Of a stretch of 64,000 nucleotides of DNA, positions 1 to 48,900 are shown piece by piece. Source of the DNA: Vermamoeba vermiformis (lineage: Eukaryota); the NCBI GenBank assembly GCA_045837725.1, contig JBEWZL010000096.1, forward strand, positions 1-64,000. The letters run 5' to 3'. Position 1 is the first letter of the stretch. Each line of letters opens with the position of its first letter. The translations under genes and the position numbers were made by a program. The notes below the pieces were generated by a model. It saw nothing but the letters and a program-made list of their open reading frames with translations, did not search any database and was not told the origin of the DNA.

Positions 1-264
1 TCAAGTGACATTTTCCAGGCTTTAGGCCTATAAGCCTTAAATTAGCTAAGCCTAACTATATATATAATTTTAATTATGACGGGGTGTGTTGTGGTCACCA
101 TGATGAAGTATGATAGTGCTTATTTATACTACTTGTCTGAAGGATTTTCCCCAAATCTTTATTACACATTTCTACAGGAGGCCCTTGACCTGTTTCTACA
201 TACATATCTTTAAAACTACTCTTGAATTGGTGAAGGACTATCCATCCACCAGCAAATGGTGGTT

Positions 265-2969
265 TTATTTATCTTTTAGAGATTGTAAATAATATTGTAA
301 ATTCTTTCTATATGTCTTTTTCTCCAGTCTGGCACAATACAACTTGGCATTTGGTTGACCAACCTCTTTTCTCCAATCAAATAGAATTACTTTCAATGCT
401 GCATTAACTGAAGCCATCTACAACAGGTTAGTGTAAATTTTGCAAGCAAACAGTTTACCTTTTTGGCAAATTCCTGTTGGGTCTCAATGTTTCTGTATGG
501 GGCAAAAGCTTTGTCAAGAAAATTGCAAAAATCTTCATGCTGTACTGCGAGCTCATCAATTATATGCTTCCACTTGGCAAAATATAGTAAAAACTTTCTG
601 GCTTTGCCAAGCCGAACCACCTCAAGCAAGCAGTCACGCTCAAAGTGATCACCACCAAGCTTTAAAAAAAAAGTCAGACTAATTGTATGATTACTTACAG
701 AACTTACATTGAAGGGATTTAATTTGTTCATAAATCCCTGCGAAGTTTGCGCTGCTAAGTACTCCAAATTTTTGAACTTGATGCGATTCCAGTTAGCATC
801 AACAGCCACAATACCAATCTACAATACATTTGAGTGCGAAAATAGTACTGGACATTTACTTACTTGCTTGAAAGGGTCTAACTGAGTGACAAATTTTTTG
901 GCGTCTGCCGCGGTTTTGATGGCAGGGAAGATCTTTACAGTTTGCCAGTGGTACTTTGCAACAAAAGGTTCTGCATCCAATTCCGCGAGTGATTCCAGAT
1001 CACGAGCTCCCAATAATACGATCTGCTCTGGATCGTGTAGAGCAACTCTTCTGAAATGCGGCGACAACAACTCGAAAATAAAGCACCTGAAATTGGTCAA
1101 TACTTGCAAAAGGTTGGAAACTACTGGATCATACTTATTCTTATCGTCGTCGCTAGGTAGCACCATTTTGTTAGCGTTCCAAATGCTCCAGAACACTTGA
1201 GAGAATTCTTGTTTTGGTTTGACAGCACCATCACTTGTCAACCAGCAAACTGCCTCCAGACCATCGGGAATACCTAAACACATAGTCAGAGAATCAATGG
1301 CATTAACAATTCCTTACGCCGAGAAGCGACGTGCCACTTTCCGTCGTAAAAATACACGACTGCACAGCTTCCATCAACCTTGAGCTGCACTTTAGCGGTG
1401 GACCAATCAAAATTATCTGCGCGATCTGTTTCGACGTCGTCGTAGAATTTTTTGAATGGATAAGCAATGACTTGGAAATTGTTGGAGCAGTCCACGATTA
1501 ATCCGTTGCATTCGCGGGTGATGTCACTGTACATAAATTAATCCACGTACGGGTATCAATAGTGGCAACGCACTCGATAGGCTCTACACCAGGTGCGTAC
1601 GACAGCTGCACCAAGTTGGGATATTTTGAGTGGCGACACGTCATTATAGCGTGCTCACGACGCAAGGACTCAAGACCTTTGACTCGCAAATATTTAACGA
1701 CTGCAATCTCCTACATCATGTCAATAAAGATCATCATAAACCGAAAGACTCACCGATTGATTAGGCATGGGCTCCGCTAATGATTTGGTATTGTTTTTGT
1801 CCTCAACAGGATGCTGCTTTAGGGAAGTAATAGCGGCGATATCAATGTCCTCATTCGTGTAAAACTTTGTGTAAGCTTGGAACGATCTGAGCTTCTTCTC
1901 TAGCTCAACGTACATTGGCCAAAACTCCGACTCGAATTCATCCCAAGTTGTCGCCGGTGAATTCTTGATTTCTAGGAGACATTTTAAACACGTTTTAATG
2001 CGACACCACTTACGTTCCCAGTAGTTGTTAGCACCGCGGAAGTCGTCAATTCTGTTCCTATCGAGCAACTGAATTGTGAAGTGCAGATAACGAAGGGATA
2101 AAAATACCAGCTACGACACGTTAGCAACTACAAAACCGTACACTGAAAGTTACCTTCTTCGCTTTGTATAGCTTTCCTTCTGCAAGGCGACGTTTCGCTG
2201 TGCTGAACTTTAAATTCGCTGCCCAGCCGTTGGTACTAATGAATAGTTAGTAATTAACTCGTAATACCAAAGACTTACATCTTAAGCACTGCAGAATCAA
2301 TGTGAATGTCAAAGTCGTACGGTTTCAAGACCTTCGGATTAAAATAAGTTCGTGTGTGGAATGCAATCCGATATACTCACAAATGGCTTGGGTGTGAAAG
2401 GGATTTCTAAAATGGCAACATGATGTTCGTGCAGCTAATCAATTGCAAATTAGTACGGCTAAAAACAAATCAAATGCGACGCACTAAAATCGTGAAGTAT
2501 TCCAAATCGTAGAACGTAATATTTAGATTGGCTGGAGAATATTCAAAGACGTCTATCTCGTGGATATCGAACGCAAACTCAAGCTTCGATTGAACTTTTC
2601 GCGGATCAGGCGGGAGAGGAGTCACTGACGGTTGAGAAAAATTAAAAATGCAATTAATTTAAAAATACTTACAAATATTTTTAGTAGGTTCCTTGACCAC
2701 GCAAATATAGTCCCAATCACTCTCTTCATTAAAAGTTCCGTAGACGCTGTAAAATAAATATTGAAAAATTAATCTCAATAATTTCTCAACTAAATGAACA
2801 TAGACTTCTATATTTTTATAACGCACATTCGTTCTTACCGAGAGCCTGTCATAAACAAACCAAGAATTTTCTGCTCGATCTGCGGATCGTACAAAGTTGT
2901 CAGGCATTTAAGTAAGTCTTCGTAATTATGCACGCCATTTTCATCTATTTTGTTTAAATTGAACTCCAT
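265..2969 (-). CDS. Multi-exon fusion protein: N-terminal Pol-beta-superfamily nucleotidyltransferase plus C-terminal T4 Rnl1-like RNA ligase
   Basis: Spliced translation MEFNLNKIDE...LFMTGSR|VYGTFNEESDWDYICV (GS..DxD NTase motif), then HSKYPNLVQLSY, RECNGLIVD, AYPFKKFY, QLKVDGS (motif I KxDG), FIFELLSP and NRIKFKN. The exon junctions checked join in frame through GT-AG introns. Stop TAA at 265-267. Confidence 0.8.
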
Positions 2970-3109
2970 GTATATGCGATTACAAATTAAATATGGTGTT
3001 GTGTCTAGAGGTTTACAAAAACGTTTTACCCAAAAGTACCGAAGAAATTAACAAAGGTATTTAGATAAAAAGCAGAACGAAACACGTTTCGGAGAGCGAT
3101 ATCTTTATT

Positions 3110-6100
3110 TCAAAAGAAGAATGTGGACAAGTCTATTTCCATCAAGTGATCTACTATTAATTCGGGCGTCGTGCCAATTAATTGGGCTATCTCGAATTGT
3201 TTAGATTTTTCGAGTTGCGTAAACCTGCACGAAAAACCGGTTAATCCAAAAGGCCACGATTCAAATGCTTTGCTACGTACTTCCAAAGTAACTCGCCATC
3301 AAGCACATGACGCAAGTGATTGTGCGACATCTTGTTGAATGGCTTGGACAGTCTAAAAGCCTTTGGGTTCAATCCCGCATAATGGTTGATCACGGTAATC
3401 AATCTCATTTCGAGCTTTCCAAGAACCTTGAAACGATCTTCGGACAACGGTGCTAAGTAGCCCATGGTGCCATTGATGCCGCCGTACATAATGCAACTTC
3501 GTTTGTAGTTCGGCTTTTGGGTCTGATGAGTATGCGTTGTTTTAAGAATGTTCAAATTGAGCCGTAAGAACTTGTGCACACGGGTGCCCAGGTGGAAATT
3601 TCCCACCGGAAGCAATCGCGAACCTCCTCGACTTTCCTTATCTGAGCATCCAGTTAGTTTTATGGTCAGTAGTAAAGTAAAGCGAGTACGTACGCAGAGG
3701 AATATATTGATACATGTGCAAGTTAGAAGTGTAATCGGCAAATAACATCGTTAATTGCGCGTCATCGATCAAAAACTCCGTGGATTCAACGTTGAAGTGA
3801 TCGACGTCCTTAGCCAGTAGCGTCAACGTGCGGGAATTTTCCTGTGATTATCTAATTAAGTCATGCACAGCTGATGAGCTTAAACATACCTTCCAGCGCA
3901 AGAAGTAGATTGACTTGTACATATCACCAATCATGATGTAGTTCTTGATCGTCTGACAGCTAGTGATGAAGATTTGTGCGTCAAAGAAGGCAACACCAAC
4001 CAAGTCGTTCATATTCTGCAATTGATACATGTAGAGCGTGTGCCACGGTCAGTACCACTCGGAAGAATAACCACTACGTTACCTTAGGACCAATAGCCAA
4101 CAACAGATATCCTTCAATCGAAGCCACTACAGACATGACACCTTTGTCCTCTTTCTCGTACAACAGCTTGAGCTTGAACACGCTTTGACCGGTCGCGTCA
4201 TCGTGCACTTGAATGATGTCAAAGAGCAAGATCTGAAAGAGGGGTTACTCCAGGCTGCATTTTTATGTGAGCGTTAAACTTACACGTCCCATGCCAACAG
4301 CATTCTCACCGCGTACGTAAGCAGTGCCGCACACGAGAATAGGTCTTTTGATCGTGTCAACAGCATCATCGTCAGTATTTTTGTTCTTCAAATAACAAAC
4401 TTTCATTGTTAAGACGACTTCTTTTTCATCGTCTTTCAAGGGAAATCTAGCCAACAGTTAGCAGCAAGCACAATACCGAATAAAAAGCAACTCACTTGTC
4501 CAGCACTTCTTTTGTATCAGCTGAGACTAATCGCACTTCATAGCGGTCTTCAAAAGCAAGAGGCATTCGCGGATCCACTATTAAAACAGTCAGTAAACCG
4601 TACAAACTTGCAGCAGCTCGCTTACAATTTTGGAAGTCATGCTCCATTTGAGCCTTCATTTCTTGTTCGCGAATGCTTGGATCACCTTCTTCGGTGTCCT
4701 CTTCGTCGCCTAACTTGGTTTTTCTGACATAAAGGCGTTGATCGTTTACTCGTTCTGACACAACCAAAACGTCGAGTTTGCGTTGTGATTGATAGACCTG
4801 AGGAGGGTTAAGACATAAGATAAATATAATAAATTTGTATGCAATCAAAACAACGAATAAAAGATGGAACAAGGGAAACGTGTCGTTTGCTTTTTTCGAT
4901 GCCAATGACTGCCGATTGTTGTTGCCTGTCTTTGAAGCGACTCGATATTTTCATTAAAATCAAATACCGAGCTAGGAGACGGCAATAAAGATACTGCTTG
5001 TAACTTACAATATTATGAACCGTAGTCTTGTTTGTCATTTTGTAATGAGGGACCGGCAACTCGTAAGAAAACAATTGACTCAACGAGCTAACGTGAATTT
5101 TTTGCTGAATCGTTTGGTTAGTGCATGCACAATCTATTTTCGCCTCTTACCTTGTAATTGTAGTAAATAAATCCTCGATCGCAATTGACATTGTGAAACG
5201 CCGTAAAGCACTCTACGCTGCCACCAGCGACCATTGGATGGTACCGCAAGTAGTTTCGCTCGCTTAAAATAAACACAGGTCGTGCACCAGTCAAGAAAAT
5301 GCCTTTCTTGCCACAAATGTCATCAAACTTGTGAATGCGCAGAAGTGACGATGTGTACAACTTCTCGCGTGCGAGCAACAGCAAGCGATCATCTGGAGCT
5401 AGAAATGAAGCAGTTAGCACTAGCTCTACTATATTCTTAGTGTCGACTTACCTCTATCAAAGGTGGCCTTCAGATTTCTGAACAGCGTTTGATTTTCAAC
5501 TTTTTTGAACCTCAACGGCAGTGACTCTTCAGGCGTATGCTTCTTCTTTTTCTTCGAACCAGCTGGGTGTTGTAACGAGTAGTAGAACCCTTTGTACACG
5601 TACAGATCACCATCGTCAAGTAGCGCCAGTAAATACGGCGAGCCTTCTTCGCCGAAAGAATGTAGTGCAATTTCAACAATGGAAGGCAACTTAAATTTTG
5701 CAACGTTGAATTGTCCATTAGCATTGCTTCCATCAGTCCGCGTGTCCTGTTCCATTGCATCACCATCAGCCTCTGCTTCGGTAATCTCTTGAATTTCTGC
5801 TTTGTTGTGATGCGTCAATAATTGCGAGCCATTGGCCAAGTTGGGACACAAGAACACAAGCTCAAATTTGGGTAGCCGATAGAACTAAATACACGTTAGG
5901 AAGTTGTGTAGCTCAGAAGACATAGACGTACCTCGACACTTCCATTATCCCGAGATAATACAAGATAAGTGGGCCGTAATATTTTTTCTTTGCTAATGGT
6001 AGTGAATGCATCGTGGTCGGCGTCAGCATTGGATTTGGTTGCAAAAATGTCTCCATAAACCTCCAAGAACTCAGTATCGTGTATCATCTCGTTATATACA

Positions 6101-9100
6101 TCGTCCACGATATCATCGTCCTGCTTTGACTTGCGCGTTTTGCTACTGTGCAAATCCTTTTCAGGTGAAACGAGTTCTGTGTTGGTTTCTACGCACGCGT
6201 TAGCACAGCTGCTTAGAGCTTAATTTCTACTTACGATTGAAAATATTGTTGAAACTCATGTCTTTGTACAAACTGACAGCACTGACATTGCCTTTATTTA
6301 CCTGCGTAAAAGTTAGGATAATCTGGTACCGTCGAACATCAACTTACATCGGGTTGAAGCACGTCTAGCGCCTTTAATTGGCCTTGTTCGTGTTGGAAAA
6401 TTTGAATGGTCTTGTTGTCCAGCAAAACGACCACCATAGGATCGCAAATATAGGATTGAATAATCGAATGGTCGTTAGTCATTGGAACGTCTTGCACAAC
6501 TTTGCCTAAGAGCGAATGTTAGATTAATCGGTTTGCTAACGCTAGCCAACGTACTGCTGTCAACTAAATGCAATCCGGATCTTAGAACTTGCAATGCATG
6601 ACGACCGTTGCCAAGAGTTCCAACGTTAATTGTTTGTTCGTTAGTTTTAAATGCTGTTGTCTTTGTAATGTCATCCAGTGCTTCACCAAAGAAAACCTTT
6701 TTGGATATAATTAAACGGAGTCGAAAGAAACATTTAACTTACAGTTGTTTCATTCGTCTTGCTAATAACTAAGTGAGTGTGGTACGTGTCAGTGGCGCCT
6801 GCTGTCGCGATCTTAATAGACCACATGCCAAGGCAATTTGGAAGCTCGTACGACATGATCACTTCGGGCCTTAATCCTTGCTGCAACGAAATATTAGATC
6901 AAAAGAGAAGATCGAAATAGCCAATAATACTCACGTGAACAACGCCCAAAGCTCCGTTCTTGTTCTTGCCTGAACACGTGACCATTTCAAATAAACTCTG
7001 ATGGGCGATTAGACCAAGGCACCATACTCACTACTACGCCAAATACTCACGTGGTTATTAGGGTCCTCCAGCAAACTGAGCGAAGCAGGGTCCCAACTGT
7101 GGTGCACGGTCATATCGGCGATTGGTCCAATATTGGGCAAGGTATCGCACACTGCCATTTTGTATCGCGCCGTACGCGATCGCTTGCCTTTGGTCTTCTT
7201 CTTAGCTCGTCCTGCAGCTGTGTCGTCATCGTGAACAACAATGCGCGAATTCTTCATTAACTTCATCAGCTCTTCTTCGTCTGCGTCGTCACTCGACTCA
7301 GCGGTACCATTTGTTTGCGCACCGTTGCTCCCTTGTGTCTCGTTCTCTTGGATTTCTTCGTCCGCTACAAAATCACCGTTTTCAGTGGTCTTCCTTCGCT
7401 TCGCAGGCCTGCCTTCATCCGATTTCTCTTTGGGCTAAAAACATTGTTAGTCATTTGCTACGTCTTACTTGACAAGTGATGAACACACCTCAGTAGTGCC
7501 TGCTGCTGGCTGGTCTTCAAACGGTAACTCTTTCGAGTAGGCAATGAGCAAGGAATCTCCGAGACGAGAACCAATGAACAAATATTCATTCGCCAACGTG
7601 CACATCTAAAGCAATTTAGTAAGCAAGGAGAAGTAATTCCGTGAGTTCAAGATTAGTACATACATCCGAGGCCAAGACACTAGCACCAATCTTCATAACT
7701 TCAATGTTCTGCACGCTTCGATTATCAAACACCAAATGGAATATGTACAAGTCACCGAGCTTGTCGGATACCAACAAATCCTCGGCGCTCAGAAAGACAA
7801 ACTTGGCGGTGTCGAGCGTGAGTAAAATCTTTGCTTTTTCTGTACGTAACAGGTTAGATCTGCTACAGCTAAACACGCGTTACGTACCATAAAGGAACGG
7901 TGCTGCAGGGTCGTCTCCAAAGTGATTCAACGACAGTCCATATTGTGCACTCTGATTGAAGTAGAGCACGTGATTGGGTGAGAACACGAGTGCACCACCA
8001 GGAGGCTCAGCAACAGGCAGGACACTAAAACAATCGTACGGCAATTTCTTCACCGTCCAAATGATCGGATGTGTCGTTGGTGAGGTCAAATCAAGCGACA
8101 AGGCCACCAAATTGCACGTGTACTTCTTCATGGAAGTGCGACTAATAACGCATTAGTACTATTTTCACTCTCAATGGCATTGCTAATAGGCGCGTACCCA
8201 GTCCAAGTGAGTTCAGATTCATAAAGAATGACGAGGGTTGGATCGTGATATCCATTCAAAAACTGAATGTCGAGCACGTTGATGATGCCCAACTCGCGCA
8301 AATTGATCACGTAGGACGAGGGATAAAGCCGCTTTGCTTCTTCTCTGCAAGTAAAGGATCAGAATGGTTATTGTACGCGTGACAGTGTTTGGCTCTTACC
8401 CGTCAGGCAGTGGTGCACTAGGATCGATTGCTTCACGTCTCAAAGGCAATACAACGAGTTGTCTATCGTATATAATGGTTGCTGCACACTTATTGAGCGG
8501 ATCCACACGAATACGAGGATGACTGGAGAATCGGATGTGTCCCTCCTACGAACGAATCGTCAGGGAATTAAAACCACGATGTACCTCGCGATAATTACCT
8601 TTAGTTTATCGTCGTTCTCGTAAAAGTGCAACGATACCAGCTTTAAATCGTGGTGAGCTTGATCCCACTCGACCAACGATATTTTGGCATCCAAGAATGA
8701 TAATAAGAGTGAATCTGTCTTTGAGCGCGGATATCTAACGGCTTTGAGTGACTCAATGTTGCCAAATAAAGAGTATTCCGCAACTAGTTGCAATTTTATC
8801 GTCTTTTTCGGTTCTTCGTCATTCTAAAATTTCAATAAAATTAGAATAAATAGCACTTAGATAGTAAGAACAAATATTGATAAAATTTTCGTTTTCTGAA
8901 GGATAGAAAATTTTTGTATGATATTTAATTGATCCAGCGCGCAATTTGGTTAGCCATATCCATTAAAAATTAAATACAATACATGTGGATTTGTCGATAT
9001 AATATATACCTTTTGCAACGGAAGTTTGAATATCTGTAATAAAGACGACTTGGCAACGATCAGATTGACATCTCGTTCGCCAGTGAAGTTAGCTGAAATA

Positions 9101-9153
9101 CAAACTTCAACCCCAGTGGGTGGATTGATCGTCTTGTGTATTGCGTGGGACAT
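3110..9153 (-). CDS. CPSF1: Cleavage and polyadenylation specificity factor 160 kDa subunit (multi-exon)
   Basis: MSHAIHKTINPPTGVE...NLIVAK; LFGNIESL; LLLSFLDAKISLVEWD; LPNIGPIADM; HYAGLNPKAFR; VLDGELLWK. This is the DDB1/CPSF160 propeller layout. Confidence 0.93.
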
Positions 9154-9222
9154 CGGTGAGCAGGTCAAATGAAAATTCGACAACAAATCTTTTTTGTCAA
9201 ATCCAACTTTGTAGAGTAACAC

Positions 9223-10932
9223 ATGGCTTCGTGGGTAGAATATAGTGCTGATACCGAGTTTCCTATTCAAAACTTGCCTTATGGCATCTTTCATTTGAAA
9301 CCTGAAAGCGCAGCGGCTGCTAGAGCTGGTGTTGCGATTGGTGAATGGATCCTCGATCTCTGCGTCATTCAAAAAGCTGGCTTGTTCTCTGGAAAGGTCG
9401 GACAATCCGATTGCTTCTCAAAGGTACATTAAGAAAGCTACACAAATGCTTTAAATCGCGGATCAGGATAGCAATGTTAACATGGACTTGAAATTTTTTC
9501 CGAATTGTCCTGCAATTTTATCAAAAAGGTATTGATGTTGGATACACCATAATTAATATGAATTTTAGCCGTATTTAAATGATTTTATGGCGATGGGCAA
9601 AGACAGCTGGAAGGAAGTTCGATCAACTTTAACCAATCTGCTCGCAAAAGACACAGCTACTCTTAGAGACAATGCCGAACTCAAATCAAAGGCTCTTGTA
9701 AAGCAAAGCGATGCGTAAGTACGCTTAAAAAGCATTGTAAAGGTCGAAATTAGAAAAACATTTCAGAATCCGCGTCTGTTCATGAAACTAACCGTATATT
9801 AGTTTCAAATACTAACTAACATGATTGCTACAGCCAAATGTGCTTGCCCTCTAAGATTGGCGATTACACAGATTTTTATTCATCACGAGATCACGCCACA
9901 AATGTAGGCAAAATGTTCAGACCCGACCAAGCCCCATTGTTGCCCAACTGGTATGAACTGCTAACATATTAATGACATATTTAGTTTGGACCTTATTAGC
10001 ACGCTCACGTATTATTTGTAAATTTCAGGCTTTGGATCCCCATCGGTTATCACGGCCGTGCCTCCTCAGTGGTCGTCAGCGGCACACCAGTGGTGCGTCC
10101 TCACGGTCAATTGAAGCCACCCACAGCTGATAAGCCTTCATTTGGTCCTTCAAAACGATTGGACTTTGAACTCGAAATGGCAACACTCGTTGGTCCGGGC
10201 AACAAATTGGGTCAACCTATTCGCATCGGTGAAGCTGAAGATCACATCTTTGGTGTGGTGCTCATGAACGATTGGAGCGGTAAGCGAATATGACATCTAA
10301 GTCAAAAAGATTTGGGCTAAGGATTGATTGCAGCCCGCGACATTCAGGCCTGGGAGTACGTGCCACTCGGTCCCTTCAACGGCAAGAACTTTGCCACCAC
10401 TATCTCCCCTTGGGTCGTCACTTTGGACGCACTCGAGTGCGTGCGTATTACAAAGGTGGAGCAGGATCCCAAGCCCCTCGATTACTTAGTGGTACGTTCT
10501 CGCTATGTGGGTCGAATGATGCTGATCAAATGAACGCAGGACCCTCGTCCCTGCCACTTTGACGTCGTTTTGGATGTGTTGTTGCAGACTCCTAAGATGA
10601 ATGAACCTCATTTGATCGCGAAATCCAACTTCAAATACTTGCACTGGTCAATCAAACAACAGCTCACTCACCACGCCTCTGGTGGTTGCAACATGCAGCC
10701 CGGTGATTTGCTCGGTACTGGCACGATCAGCGGTCCTGACGCCAGCGAGTTCGGCTCCTTGTTAGAATTGAGCTGGAACAACACCAAGCCCATCAACTTG
10801 CCTTCTGGCGAAACGCGCACTTTCTTGGAAGACAACGACACATTGATCATGCGCGGCTATGCTCAAGGCCCGGGTTACCGCATTGGATTCGGCGAATGCT
10901 CTGGCCAAGTTCTGCCCGCCGTACAATACTAA
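9223..10932 (+). CDS. FAH: Fumarylacetoacetase (multi-exon)
   Basis: [82 protein letters not shown]. Confidence 0.96.
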
Positions 10933-42929: not shown

Positions 42930-45900
42930 TTAATCTAACAATAACTCAGTGTACACCGCGCCTATGATCGAAAAAATATCAACAGCTCGATCATAATGCT
43001 GCAATCGTTCTTGCACGACATTAACATTTTCTTTCATGCTCGCACTCGTTTTGCCGAGTCTGTAGTGTGCCAATGCCTCTTCATATAACATTCCCAACTT
43101 GATAGCTGTTTGCACGGACCGTTCCCATTGTTTAATCGCACGGTCTTGTCGTCCTTGTACTAACTCTTGCAATCCTTGAAGTGAAGAAAGTCGAGGTTCC
43201 ATAAAAGGGAAAATTTCCGCGAACTTAGCCAAGTGCGTGATAGCTTTGTTGATCTTCATCGACATTTTTGAGGGCGATAATCGTCTCGCTGTATCGGCAT
43301 TAGGTCCGCTAGTAGGTCTGTTCTTCTGCATCTCCAGCATGAAAGTCAGGTACACCTCTGCTGGGGAGAAATATCCGGGGAACGTGAAGTACGCCGTCGG
43401 CTCGCATTTGTCCAACAGTGCGACTACGGTGTCAGCTGTGCGCACTGCCATTTCAAAGTCTCGTTTGTACAAGTAGCACAGTGCCATCAAGCCGTGGAAG
43501 TTTATCTCTGAAGCCATGTCTAACCGATAGTCCCGATTGTTGCCTATTAAAGAACACATCGTTAGCACTGGAACAAAGCTAATATAATATTAACATTTCT
43601 ACGTACCAATCAACCCTTCAATCTCCTGCAAGATCGACATTGCTTTGTCGGATTGACCAAGAGCCAAGCGTGTGCGTGCCAGAGTGGTCAAGCCCAACAC
43701 AAACGACTGCGTGTCACCACGCTTTCTCGCACTCTCGACTGCATCGTCCATCAACTCCAAGCAGGAGTAGATCTTGCCTTGCAAGAACAAACAAGTGGAC
43801 TGGAAGTACGTGCACTCCTCGACAAGTCTGCAGTCTCCGAGGTTGTTGCCGAGTTCGATGGCTTGTTTGAATGCATCGATGGCTTTGTCCCAATTGCAGA
43901 CACCGCTGTAGTACATGCCAGTCATTTGCAGGACGTTGGCAAGCGGGGCGGAGTCGGTCGAAGAGTACTGCTTTGAGAAGAACATGCCCATGTCGATAAA
44001 GTTCTCCGCCAGCTGATTCTTCTTGTGAATACTCAGCGTTAATATACAGTTGCCATAGGCTTCGCAGAGTGCTTTAGAAATGCCAATCTCTTCGGCTTGT
44101 TTCAACGCCATCAAGTTGCAGTATGTAATGACGTTCTTGTTGCACGCGTAGTAGTTGACTTTGCCCATACCAAGCAAGATCAAAATGTATTCTTTCACTT
44201 CTTCTGACACTTGAACTAACGTGCGGATTCTCTTCGAGCTCTTCTTTTTATCTTTGACATCTAAAAACGAGCGTTAGAGAAATCTCACGAGGATTGGCGT
44301 GACACGTACTTTCAGGGGCATTCAAGTCACCCTTGGACGAGACACTTTTGATGGACTTTGGATCGATGTGAGGCGTGGTAACTGACTTGAGCTTCGACAA
44401 AAGTTGTTGCGCTGTCGTTGTTTTCAACGGTTTGTTCATCAAGTTGAGGGCTGTTTCCAAGTGTTCTGACGCTTTGTCCATCAAACCTTGGTTATAAAAC
44501 GCTTGACCCAGCTGTCTCTGCCATCGGATCAAGGTCCAGACTTCGGGGTCATCTTGATTTTTGTTCTCTTCGCCAATAACTTTAGCTTTGCTAGGTCGTG
44601 ATGAAACAGCTGAATCGGTTGTTTGAGTCGCAGGCTTCGCCTTATTTCTAAGAAAGTATCATTAGAATCGGTTTGTTACTCAGCGAGCGAATGTATGGTA
44701 CGTACTTTAGTTCAATGGCTTCGTTCAAGAAGTTCACCGCTTCACGATTGGCAAAGCTGTCCAGCGCGTGCTCACCAGCCTTTGCTAACCAAACAACGGC
44801 CAGGTCCCACCGTTCAGCTTGCTTGTAATGATGGGCCAACAAACTGTACGACGGCGTTTGATCTTGCTTCGAGTTGACGTACCATTCAGCAACTTTTTCG
44901 TGCACTTGTCGTCGTTGAGCATACAACATTTGTGCGTAAATAACTTCTTGCATCATAATCTGCTTGAATAGGTACGTCAAAGGCTTTTCGGAACGCAGCG
45001 AGATGAAGTCAAGCGAGTCGAGTTGTTCCAGATCTGCTTTGATGCTTTGAACGTCTGCCTTTGTGGTGTATGCAGGCATGATATCTTTCAGCAAATCGAA
45101 GGGGAAGGCACGGCCAATGACCGCCGCGACCTTCAAGATCATTTGTTGACTTTGTGGCAGCCTGTCGACCTTGCTAGTGATCAAGGCGCGCAAGTTACTT
45201 GGGAACACCGTGGAATCGCTGCGAACGAGTTTTCGGTTCATGATAATCTCGCCCTGCGGAGATACTTCGAATCGACCAGAGGCTCTGAGGGCATCGATCA
45301 ACTCGATTGAAAGTAACGGCTCACCGCCACCACGTTCAATAACTTGTTGCGCAATGTCTACGGGCAGTGTCTTGCACCCGAGCCTGAAAGCAGCAATGGC
45401 TTTGATCGACTCAGCATCGAGGTTCTTGAGCGTGATCTTCTTGGCTGTAGGCAGCTTGCCAATCTTTTCGAAGTCCAGTGGAGGTTCAGTCTCGAACGGT
45501 CGATAGGCCACCAAAAACAATGAGCCCTTCAGTGTTTGTGCGGCAGCTAGAGTCAACGACCAGCTCTGTGAGTCCAACCATTGAGCGTTCTCCAAAGTGA
45601 ACATGGTGAAGTCGCTCGCTTGCAGTAATCGCAGCAACAAAACTTGCAAGTTCTCGGCCTTGACTTGACCAGACATTTGCTCGGTCTTTTCGTTTTCAGG
45701 CAGATCCCAGCCAAGCACGGGGTTCAACAACGGAGCCAATTCATTCACGTCTGAAATTCCGAGTTCGTCGAGGGTCTTGTTGACGTGCTCGGCCTTCTCT
45801 TGCGGTGTCAACAAGAACATATCTTCGGCGTTCAAAATCACCGTAAAAATTTCGTGCCAAGCGTAGTAAGGCGTGCTGGCTTCGATAGCGAGACCAGATC

Positions 45901-48900
45901 CGACGACAGACTTGATTTTCTTGTCGTTTGCTGTGTTCAAGAATTCTTGGAGCAGTCTTGTCTTGCCAATACCAGCTTGACCTTCGATTAAAATGACGTG
46001 CGGATCTTCGATATTATCTTCGTTATCTTCCTCCTTCGAGTTTTCCTTCTCGCGCTCGACACGAACCAGCCATTCGATCTCTTTGTTCAATTGTTTGAGC
46101 TCTTCAACACGACCAAAGATGGGCATATTTGATCGGTCCAGTCGACCCATGTTCGATAAAGACCGGCCAGATCGAGGTGTGATTCCCTTTCGCTTAGTGA
46201 ATCTTAAACTGCCGCGCAAAGTTGTCGTGCGGCCGCTAATGCTGCGCTTTTCAGCCTCTTTGACCGGCGAGTAGATCTCGATTGGCATGTTCTTGCCCTT
46301 CACCATGATCGGTGCCAAGGTGTTGAATCGCAATTGGCTCTTGCTGGCAGTGAAGGTTGGATTGTCGACCAAGACCTTTCCGTCAGCCTTGGCCATGAGT
46401 CGAGCGGACAAGTTGACGATATCTCCGACCATGGCATATTCACGACGTTCTTCACTACCCACTGCACCACAGAAGGCCTTGCCCGTTGTAACACCGATCG
46501 AGGACTTGATCTCGATTTGTTGCAGCTTCTTTTGAATCAAAAGTGCTGTTTTGACAGCACGTGACGGGTCATCTTCGTGACTGAGAGGTGGCAAACCAAA
46601 AGCAGCAATAAAGACTGAGCCCTTGTCGTCAACAATGAACTAGCCACCAAGATTAGTATATTACTATATTTGGAAATATTGATGAACATACCTGTCTGAC
46701 GGTGCCTTCATAGTGATACACAGCAGATTGCATCGCTTTCATGGCCTCTTGAATCTTCGGAATAGCCTCCGTTGAGAAGGTCAAACCAATGTTAACAAAA
46801 ATGACTGAAATGCTGCGCAACTCGGCCAAGAAATGTTCCGGTGAGCCAGAGCTCAAGTGACCGAGCACGGCGGGCTGCACGTACGGCGAGATCATGTTCT
46901 TTGTTTGTTCTGCGTGCGGCAATGGCAGTGTGGGTGGCAGTTCGACGGGATTGGTAACTTTTTCCAATCTGAAGCACGTGCTGTCATCTAACTTCGACAA
47001 CATTTTCTTCTTTGGCGGACCTTTCCTGTCTTTAGGCTGGTCCTTGGCGTCCACTGAGACTTGAATGCTGTCAAAGATGGCCTTGGCTGCTTGTTGTGAT
47101 ATGTACACTTCGCCAGGCTGTGCAGTGTGCTCGCACTCAGCTACTTGTTCGAGCGGATCTCCAGCGATGAAGAACTCGGTGTGATCAGGAACACCCACGT
47201 GGATGCCTGAGACCATGCCCGCACCAATACCCACGTGTAATGTCAACGTGCACTCGTCGGCTTTGAACTCGTGCAAATGTTCTTGCATTGCCAAAGAGCA
47301 CTGTGTGGCCAACATAATCGCATAACGCAAGTTTTGTTCTAATTCATATCGTTAGTATTATAGTAACAGTAAAATAAGTAACGAAGCACGTACCATTGTT
47401 AGTGGGCCAAATGGCCAATAAAGCGTCACCGGCAAACTTGACAATGTCACCGCCGTGGTTGTGAATCAAGTTGATCATTTGTCCAAAATATTCGTTCAAA
47501 TAAGCTGTCAGTTGTTCCACTCCTCGCGATCCTAATTTGGCAAGTTTTTCAGCCAATGGTGTGAAGCCCGAAATATCAGCAAACAACACGCAAGCGTGGT
47601 ATTGCTCGTTCTCTGGCGGCTCTAACGCGACGTGTTTTCGAATGAACCTTCGAAGCACGAGCTTGGGGACGTAAGAAGACAGTGCTTGAATTAACATGGT
47701 CTGTTGCAGATCTGGTCTTTTGTCGCTCATATTCGGATCTTGTTGGTCAACCCAGAACGCAGAATAGTAAAAGGCTTGATCGGGCTTGGGAGACAATGAA
47801 TTCGCTGCTTCGTCTTCTTCGATTTTCTTCAAGTTGTTCAAGTTCAGCTTCATCGCGTGTTCGCCAGATCCACGTTGAATTTTTTTGTAATCGCGAATTT
47901 CGTCTTCGGCGAAACGGAATAATTGTCCGTCATCGTCAAAATTGTGACTTAAAGTCACGTGACTGATAAAACCTTCTTTTTCAAGCTCGCGGCCGAGAGC
48001 AATAGCTTCAGACTTTGTATTTTTAAGATTCTCCTCGATCCACTTAACGAGTTCAGAAGCTTTAAATGAATGCGTTAATATACCTCTACGCTATAATAAT
48101 AACCGTTATACTAATGCTTACCGACAAAACATTTGTTAAACAAACGCAATTTGACTCTTCTATTTTTAATTGAAACACCGCTCGTTTTGTGTCTCATTCT
48201 TGCCACTATATCGGACAAGCGCTTTCGTTGCTGTAAATAATGATTAATAACTATAATACTGCTATTACTTAATCTCGCCGTACATCTGAGCGCCGAGGTG
48301 ATGGCGTGACTTCGCTGCTATCGAGCAAAATGCCTGCACGCGTTAACGAGCCTAATGTATCGAGCGACAGCAACGTAGGAATCGTTGGATTGCTGCCTGA
48401 GACCTTTAGCGCGGGCAATATCGTCTCTGGACTGCCGTCTGTTTAAAAATTATTAGCGTTGCGTAAAAGACCTGGAAAAATGAAAAGTATCGCTAGAAAG
48501 ATTTTTATCGTAATAAAGTAGTTTCCACCGTAAATGCCCGTATTTACAAAATAATTTCAGTGTAAATTAATTTAATTAAACTATAATGTCCATAAAAGGG
48601 CAAAAAGCGAATTTGGCTGGTGTCGATTACTATTCTATTATTTTGGTCATATTTATTTTTTCGTGCGTGCAAAATTACTGTATTTATTCGAGCGAGGCAA
48701 ATTTGAGCTTATTCTTTTTATCGAAAGCGATCTGATAAAAGATTTTCCATTTCAAAAATAGTATCAATTTTAAATCAAGCGCCTTCTAGCAGTCTTAATA
48801 TGCATTTGCGCAATGTACGTATGCATGCCATATTATCATCTTAAAATAACTCGAGTAACTTACCTCGTTTTGCGTTGAAACTGAATTCGGTCAATCCGAT

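Follow-up and report, generated by a model that had tools for sequence, protein, structure and literature searches.

What is the function of a eukaryotic gene that joins a nucleotidyltransferase (NTase) to an RNA ligase of the T4 RNA ligase 1 (Rnl1) type, and how old is it? The question is raised by a locus of Vermamoeba vermiformis (GenBank assembly GCA_045837725.1, contig JBEWZL010000096.1), of which positions 1 to 64,000 of the forward strand, called the window hereafter, were analysed. A first-pass annotation had proposed a single-polypeptide enzyme for RNA end processing or repair. The results presented here point to a nuclear, spliced and expressed eukaryotic gene which probably encodes a two-enzyme RNA end-repair protein, with an NTase of the RlaP kind followed by an ATP-dependent ligase of the Rnl1 type.

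Gene structure and transcript evidence

The fusion gene lies on the minus strand of the window (2969..265), with its ATG at 2969 and a TAA stop at 267-265. Fifteen exons, separated by 14 introns of 41-92 nt, form a single open frame of 673 codons plus stop, without internal stop. All motifs quoted in the first-pass annotation were recovered in this one spliced gene, namely GSRVYGT (residue 42), SDWD (53), KVDGS (378), FIFELLSP (447) and RIKFK (531); ECNGLIVD is found at residue 334. The predicted protein is 83.2% identical, over its full length and without gaps, to a 673-aa database protein (P0001) named 'predicted nucleotidyltransferase' by its source. Comparison with P0001 also improved the gene model, as the initial version of 14 exons and 689 aa still contained an extra intron (1134..1087). 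Pfam scans of single window exons gave nothing usable, the exons being too short to score.

The earlier exon reading was correct in proposing a spliced open reading frame (ORF), and its KAKK/LVFLSL junction is a genuine splice (intron 2153..2111). Two of its exons, however, hide a short in-frame intron: exon 2110-1754 contains one of 42 nt (2013..1972) and exon 1273-864 one of 48 nt (1134..1087). The donor of the intron ahead of DITRECNG was moved to 1573. Both hidden introns are multiples of three and free of stops, and retention of the 42- or 48-nt intron would add 14 or 16 residues with the frame intact. Both are removed in the X1 and X2 contigs described below.

Seventeen public runs are listed for the window, and four of them were examined. 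Of the 14 predicted introns, every one is skipped by the contigs of run X1 and 10 by those of run X2, the depth of X2 being zero over 1170-1750. The kind of these two runs ('RNA?') is the guess of the tool, and the intron-less form argues for cDNA. Thirteen of the 14 splice joints match the GT..AG boundaries of the model exactly (CT..AC on the plus strand). The remaining joint is listed as 2430/2481 ('GC..AC', three ambiguous letters) versus 2434/2485 in the model. An unconfirmed G>C change at 2434 in X1 and X2, turning Leu116 into Val, the residue found at that position in a homologue from Balamuthia (P0004, see below), would explain this odd joint.

One spliced X1 contig of 1347 nt runs from 3007, in the 5' untranslated region (UTR), to 1160 and takes in the NTase with its helical domain, then the junction and motif I of the ligase. 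Because this contig bridges both halves, the objection that they could be separate transcripts is removed, and the single polypeptide originally proposed is upheld. Only three and six partial reads, at 90-95% identity, came from the two raw RNA-seq runs, X15 and X17 respectively ('same species label'), which are therefore uninformative on expression. The X1 and X2 contigs differ from the window at 11 coding positions. Since nine of these differences are synonymous, purifying selection on the fusion gene is indicated.

Distribution and age of the fusion

The fused architecture recurs in P0001 (83% identical), in a 750-aa protein of Balamuthia mandrillaris (P0004, NCBI KAL6056841.1; 36% identical) and on a GC-rich, intron-bearing metagenome contig (L001). 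The record name of P0004, 'Npa1 domain-containing protein', looks like a mis-annotation, as Pfam gave only weak NTase matches on it. A 96-aa fragment (P0002, 78% identical) points to a further close relative; P0002 and P0003 resemble ORFs called on unspliced DNA of the fusion gene family. Word-indexed protein searches returned only P0001, and an exhaustive search with the middle exon returned three proteins. The scan of genome contigs gave one match of 28 residues, and a search with a single ligase as query gave one locus.

The introns of the window gene were compared with those of L001 by means of a spliced-alignment script that takes the window protein as query and forbids stops; three junctions were checked by eye. 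Eight of the 14 window introns share codon and phase with L001, at a protein identity of about 30%. Among the other six, four are close but different or uncertain and two are absent; an L001 intron near 2080-2145 and the region 1606-1664 are uncertain and were excluded from the shared count. Because so many introns are common to such a distant homologue, the fusion and many of its introns are older than the split of the two lineages, which, on this intron evidence, makes it an old eukaryotic gene and no recent import. The suggestion of a virus- or bacteria-derived, intron-bearing gene holds, therefore, in part: the nearest non-eukaryotic relatives are phage genes, but a recent import is not what the shared introns indicate.

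Could the fusion be an artefact, that is, a wrong model joining two genes, a recent viral or bacterial insertion, or contamination of the assembly? The phage affinity just mentioned would fit an insertion, and X1 and X2 are only guessed to be RNA. Nevertheless, one stop-free frame crosses 15 exons, the spliced contig bridges the halves, and the same fusion is present in P0001, P0004 and L001. Moreover, the gene carries 14 spliceosomal introns, eight of them shared with L001, and no close relative was found in the viral contigs scanned with P0001 or P0004 as query. The genes around it in the window are of common eukaryotic kinds (CPSF_A, FAA hydrolase, ABC transporter, NAD kinase, SPRY/F-box, FMO). 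An artefact is extremely improbable, and this explanation is close to refuted.

The N-terminal nucleotidyltransferase module

The first-pass annotation had read the N-terminal half as an NTase domain, and this assignment was supported, the NTase being of the Pol-beta type. PF01909 matches P0001 with 21.5 bits, narrowly passing the cut-off of 21, and phrog_388 ('nucleotidyltransferase') reaches 3.1e-9 on P0001 and 3.9e-12 on P0004. In hhalign, the fusion proteins align with four short phage NTases (~200 aa) at 99.7% and E 3.1e-25 over 179 columns (query 27-241, template 14-194 of 202 columns). The N-terminal module as a whole matches nothing better than these four, which come from Xanthomonas phage XacN1 (ORF208), Bacillus phage MrDarsey (gp142), Lysinibacillus phage LC76P1 (gene 42) and the viral contig L024. 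A tblastn search against phage records gave 90 records; among those listed, most are jumbo-phage NTases which match residues 30-240 at 25-29% identity, and gp109 of Bacillus phage G is a further match.

Because the short phage NTases align across nearly the whole template, the helical region, which does lie between the NTase core and the ligase, is the NTase module's own domain and no separate linker. The actual linker that follows it is poorly conserved and differs in length among P0001, P0004, where it is Ser/Pro-rich, and L001.

The G42-S43 and D54-x-D56 residues are invariant in all four eukaryotic members (window protein, P0001, P0004 and L001). E96 is an invariant acidic residue in the eukaryotic members and a candidate for the third carboxylate. 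A profile of P0001 and P0004 also aligns with seven viral RlaPs, all of which pass the cut-off of the RlaP family PF10127, at 97.4% and E 1.1e-11, over 94 columns of the core only. Both groups of phage NTases, the PF10127 RlaPs and the short ones, belong to phrog_388. Pfam matches only PF01909 and Polbeta on two of the three annotated short NTases scanned and on L024, and nothing on the third. Judged by these profiles, the N-terminal module is RlaP-like, yet no PF10127 member by score.

In the XacN1 genome (L012, ORF204-216), the short RlaP-like NTase is found among NAD-salvage and ADP-ribose genes (NMNAT/ADP-ribose pyrophosphatase, nicotinate phosphoribosyltransferase, DUF1768) and not next to a ligase. 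From this context, the short subgroup may have another or a wider role.

The C-terminal ligase module

Appended domains are what sets the ligase families apart by definition (PMC6379707). The proposed kinship of the C-terminal half with T4 Rnl1 was supported by profile, translated and structure searches. phrog_562 ('RNA ligase and tail fiber protein attachment catalyst', the family of T4 gp63) matches residues 302-544 of P0001 at 1.7e-16 and P0004 at 6.3e-9. By tblastn, the ligase half matches an ORF of 383 aa from an uncultured huge phage (6e-27). This ORF passes the cut-off of PF09511, as do all of the four phage ligases scanned, itself included, and the ligase of viral contig L002. In hhalign, the fusion profile aligns with five phage Rnl1-like ligases at 99.7% and E 8.5e-27 over 326 columns, up to column 329 of 367, in the C-terminal domain of these ligases. 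A profile of the five phage ligases and two fusion proteins matches T4 Rnl1 (2c5u_A) at 2.8e-31, over chain residues 33-307 of 375, and fungal Trl1 ligase domains at only ~5e-4. The similarity of both halves to phage NTases and ligases is, by these alignments, far beyond chance (E 3.1e-25 and 8.5e-27).

A structure search with the Atlas model of P0001 (pLDDT 0.69) aligned residues ~280-660 to six clusters. Five of these carry PF09511 on 74-95% of their members, and the TM by row is 0.61-0.72 in five of the six rows, the exception being a cluster of 694-aa Pnkp-ligase proteins (0.37). PF20819 has no match on P0001 or P0004, and phmmer with P0001 and a two-sequence profile gave only chance-level matches to PDB sequences.

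Two stand-alone phage ligases deserve mention for the end-healing genes beside them. A stand-alone Rnl1-like ligase of a huge phage (L007, 5748-6740) has as its neighbour, judged by eye, an HD-domain and P-loop kinase protein. In Vibrio phage vB_CoeS_P1 (L010, 2532-4972), an Rnl1-like ligase lies beside an annotated metal-dependent phosphohydrolase and a polynucleotide kinase.

Nucleotidyltransferase-ligase pairing in phages and bacteria

The first-pass annotation assumed that NTases are unusual partners of Rnl1 ligases. This premise was refuted both by the association for which RlaP (short for 'RNA ligase-associating Pol-beta') is named (PMC12776372; PMC7824862) and by a gene cluster on the viral contig L002. 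There, consecutive genes encode an RlaP (PF10127, 1.5e-19), an Rnl1-like ligase (PF09511, 1.2e-15), a Pnkp and a Thg1-like protein. By BLASTP, P0001 matches the RlaP of this cluster at 7e-11 and its ligase at 8e-7. The name RlaP reportedly originates with Burroughs and Aravind in 2016.

Among 17 viral loci screened, a ligase adjoins the NTase on two contigs (L003; L002/L015). As for the short NTases, a ligase gene lies inside the fetched stretch in one of three annotated phage loci (MrDarsey gp146, 'tRNA ligase'), and tblastn with ligase queries found none within 3 kb of the NTase on L024. By gene order and sequence similarity, the eukaryotic protein unites in one chain, with their order unchanged, the products of two genes that lie side by side in phages. 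RlaP NTases and 5'-phosphate RNA ligases are thought to cooperate against nucleases that cut and then trim RNA.

A 2025 preprint describes Pseudomonas RlaPs that add one or two nucleoside monophosphates (NMPs) to RNA 3'-OH ends, an activity established there for PfRlaP and PaRlaP only (PMC12776372). Its authors propose that RlaPs put back, ahead of ligation, the nucleotides which 'smart' ribotoxins have removed, and they note that 5'-phosphate ligases are well served by the product (PMC12776372). Regarding phage RlaPs, a jumbo-phage review agrees (PMC7824862).

Proposed function and alternative explanations

By analogy with these systems, the fusion protein would most likely add nucleotides to broken RNA and then seal it. 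Once an RNA, for example a tRNA, had been cut and trimmed, the NTase would extend its 3'-OH by one or two nucleotides, and the ligase, adenylylated on K378, would seal this 3'-OH with a 5'-phosphate end. Both steps would be held on one substrate by the fusion, and the role may be the repair of ribotoxin or nuclease damage.

Several results weigh against this interpretation. With the RlaP family PF10127 (cut-off 23 bits), P0001 has no match at E up to 1, and P0004 scores 13.1 bits (E 0.078). Neither protein matches the Rnl1 family PF09511 (RNA_lig_T4_1; cut-off 28.3 bits, P0001 at E up to 1). AlphaFold2 on the alignment of P0001 and P0004 gave no usable fold (mean pLDDT 37), and the window contains no Pnkp-type end-healing gene. 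Furthermore, the ligase half lacks the counterparts of T4 Arg54 and of the motif IV Glu in the window protein, P0001, P0004 and L001, a departure from T4 Rnl1 which the first-pass annotation had not noticed. In T4 Rnl1, both Arg54 and Lys75 touch the gamma-phosphate of ATP, and neither can be spared in vitro; the Glu of motif IV takes part, by way of water, in holding the catalytic metal (PMC6379707). The Arg and the Glu are both invariant in the five phage ligases, and T4 also has the motif IV Glu. P0004 has in addition lost the lysines of motifs I and V, and L001 the second motif V Lys and the Lys75 counterpart. As far as residues tell, these further changes make it evident that the eukaryotic fusion family has not kept classical ligase chemistry throughout.

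The T4 numbering used here was obtained by alignment to 2c5u_A, in which, by our own count, the chain number equals the native number plus one. Motif I reads KVDG in the window protein, KYDG in P0001, KLDG in the L001 model and RLDG in P0004. An invariant Gln (Q519 in the window) directly precedes the motif IV position in all four eukaryotic sequences. From these alignments, the window ligase is the best preserved of the family, yet no textbook Rnl1.

The residue changes raise the main alternative, namely that the NTase is the sole working enzyme and that the ligase half has decayed to an RNA-binding or targeting pseudo-ligase. The protein would then tail or tag particular RNA 3' ends and seal nothing. 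The invariant catalytic residues of the NTase fit this alternative, as do the loss of Arg54 (one of the four has a Lys there) and the motif IV Glu throughout, the loss of the nucleophile and both motif V lysines in P0004, and that of one motif V Lys and the Lys75 counterpart in L001. It is nevertheless considered unlikely, though worth keeping in mind: the window protein and P0001 retain K378, D380, G381, K355, E450, K533 and K535, and the ligase half is also under purifying selection, its differences at codons 413 and 593 being synonymous. The Gln beside the motif IV position could partly replace the Glu, and P0004 is an automatic gene model.

The target might also be something other than broken RNA, such as DNA ends, or either domain might nucleotidylate a protein or a small molecule. 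Substrates are diverse among both Pol-beta NTases and lysine-adenylyltransferases, and in NCBIfam the NTase core weakly matches MntA and the aminoglycoside NTases (E 0.007-0.07, well short of the cut-offs). The change at Arg54, a contact of the ATP gamma-phosphate, would be compatible with such a target as well. However, the best relatives of both halves belong to RNA-repair families (phrog_562, RlaP-type NTases, and PF09511 ligases beside Pnkp or HD-kinase genes), and a non-RNA target is clearly improbable.

The two-enzyme repair protein is thus retained as the preferred explanation. A more speculative and rather doubtful scenario can be built upon it: an old amoeba-type lineage would keep a phage-derived add-then-seal enzyme, whose ligase half is becoming, or in some species has already become, a non-catalytic RNA-recognition module that steers the NTase to broken tRNAs or rRNAs. 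If true, this would be a eukaryotic pathway of RNA-damage tagging or repair without a described counterpart.

Feature coordinates and genomic neighbourhood

The coordinates of the gene, its modules and its predicted catalytic residues are listed in Table 1.

Table 1 Features of the fusion gene in window coordinates, with the state of ligase residues in the homologues P0001, P0004 and L001
Feature	Position	Strand	Residues	Basis or state
Transcript, minimum extent	225..3007	minus		X1 record 3 ends at 3007 (5' UTR to at least 3007); X2 record 4 starts at 225 (3' UTR to at least 225)
Coding exons 1-5	2969-2839, 2746-2673, 2624-2485, 2434-2381, 2331-2279	minus		sequence model
Coding exons 6-10	2235-2154, 2110-2014, 1971-1754, 1710-1574, 1526-1318	minus		sequence model
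Coding exons 11-15	1273-1135, 1086-864, 818-708, 659-459, 417-265	minus		sequence model
Introns common to L001, 1-4			R44 phase 2; after L115 phase 0; after F133 phase 0; after K178 phase 0	spliced alignment
Introns common to L001, 5-8			codon 211 phase 1; R399 phase 1; codon 445 phase 2; after Q519 phase 0	spliced alignment
Pol-beta-type NTase core	2326..2891	minus	~27-135	PF01909, phrog_388, hhalign
NTase catalytic residues (predicted)	2846-2841, 2718-2716, 2712-2710, 2544-2542	minus	G42-S43, D54, D56, E96	alignments
Helical domain of NTase module	1823..2325	minus	~136-260	includes KAKK followed by LVFLSLRYLHFTIQLL; hhalign, tblastn
Variable linker	1754..1822	minus	~261-283	poorly conserved
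Rnl1-type N-terminal sub-domain	1403..1710	minus	~284-370	alignment with phage PF09511 ligases
Ligase adenylyltransferase core	741..1402	minus	~371-545	hhalign, phrog_562, tblastn
Ligase C-terminal helical domain (putative)	268..740	minus	~546-673	hhalign, Atlas structure search
Position of T4 Arg54	1507-1505	minus	N336	P0001 Asn; P0004 Asn; L001 Lys
Position of T4 Lys75	1450-1448	minus	K355	P0001 kept; P0004 kept; L001 lost
Motif I	1381-1370	minus	K378-V-D380-G381	Lys: P0001 kept, P0004 Arg, L001 kept; Asp and Gly: kept in P0001, P0004 and L001
Motif III Glu	1073-1071	minus	E450	P0001 kept; P0004 kept; L001 kept
Position of motif IV Glu	866-864 + 818-813	minus	Q519-I520-G	P0001 Ile; P0004 Ile; L001 Ala
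Motif V KxK	779-771	minus	K533, K535	P0001 kept; P0004 Gln, Phe; L001 Lys, Leu

No paralogue of the fusion gene and no Thg1 gene were found within the window. The gene immediately upstream (3241-9417, minus) ends in a CPSF_A domain (8.5e-21), which places it in the CPSF160/DDB1/SF3b130 family. Only some 230 nt separate its 3' end from the fusion gene's 5' UTR, a mark of the compactness of this genome. At 44648-48090 (minus), a large gene combines DEP, adenylate/guanylate cyclase and an AAA_16 STAND-type ATPase with helical repeats that follow. The nearest Atlas clusters of its cyclase-AAA_16 part are 93-100% bacterial, and the gene could be a bacterial-type signalling ATPase with a eukaryotic DEP domain.

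Novelty and significance

The partnership of NTase and ligase is already known; new is its fused, intron-rich eukaryotic form. To our knowledge, the coupling of RlaP and ligase has so far been inferred only from the neighbourhood of their genes and from a single preprint, which deals with the NTase in isolation. That both activities act on the same substrate gains support from a natural fusion in one chain, expressed, conserved and of old standing in eukaryotes, and the protein would be convenient material for testing the coupled reaction. The add-then-seal logic of repair would thereby extend from bacteria and phages to free-living protists. The changed ligase residues, in turn, amount to a natural experiment that could tell which contacts in the active site are dispensable for an Rnl1-type enzyme.

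No eukaryotic fusion of an RlaP-like NTase with an Rnl1 ligase was found described in a literature search; such fusions may be listed in the paper of 2016 in which RlaP was defined or in the supplement of PMC12776372, both outside the search. Free-living amoeboid protists are described as rich in Rnl1-family ligases, seven of which are encoded by Naegleria (PMC4408790). Bdelloid rotifers are reported to up-regulate horizontally acquired RNA ligases, PF09511 included, on fungal attack (bioRxiv 10.1101/2021.09.04.458992).

Comparison with known systems

Among the known systems nearest to the fusion is the RlaP family. It shares with the fusion a Pol-beta core of the GS...DxD type followed by what may be a comparable helical domain, membership in phrog_388 and the link to an RNA ligase; the expected shared chemistry would be the addition of one or two NMPs onto an RNA 3'-OH (PMC12776372). 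In contrast to the family, the fusion stays below the PF10127 cut-off and aligns with it in the core only, its helical domain matching the short phage subgroup instead. It is also joined in frame to the ligase rather than encoded by an adjacent gene, and it is eukaryotic and intron-bearing. The short jumbo-phage NTases, which resemble the whole N-terminal module best, are by contrast stand-alone proteins.

The ligase half resembles T4 RNA ligase 1 (gp63, PF09511; PDB 2C5U, 5TT6) in its N-terminal sub-domain, the KxDG motif, the motif III Glu, the KxK motif and, putatively, the helical C-terminal domain. It differs in having Asn for Arg54 and Ile, preceded by Gln, for the motif IV Glu. Moreover, the fusion carries the NTase module upstream, and the alignment stops at T4 residue 307 of 375.

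The L002 cluster has the same families as the fusion, in the same order of NTase and then ligase. There, however, they are separate genes, accompanied by the end-healing Pnkp and the 5'-end-repair Thg1, whereas the window has no such genes. Finally, fungal and plant Trl1 consist of ligase, kinase and CPD, and phage or viral Pnkp-ligase fusions exist. In all of these, as in the protein described here, an Rnl1-like adenylyltransferase domain is joined to another RNA end-processing activity. Their partner is an end-healing kinase or phosphoesterase, whereas in the Vermamoeba protein it would be, by analogy with RlaP, a nucleotide-adding NTase.

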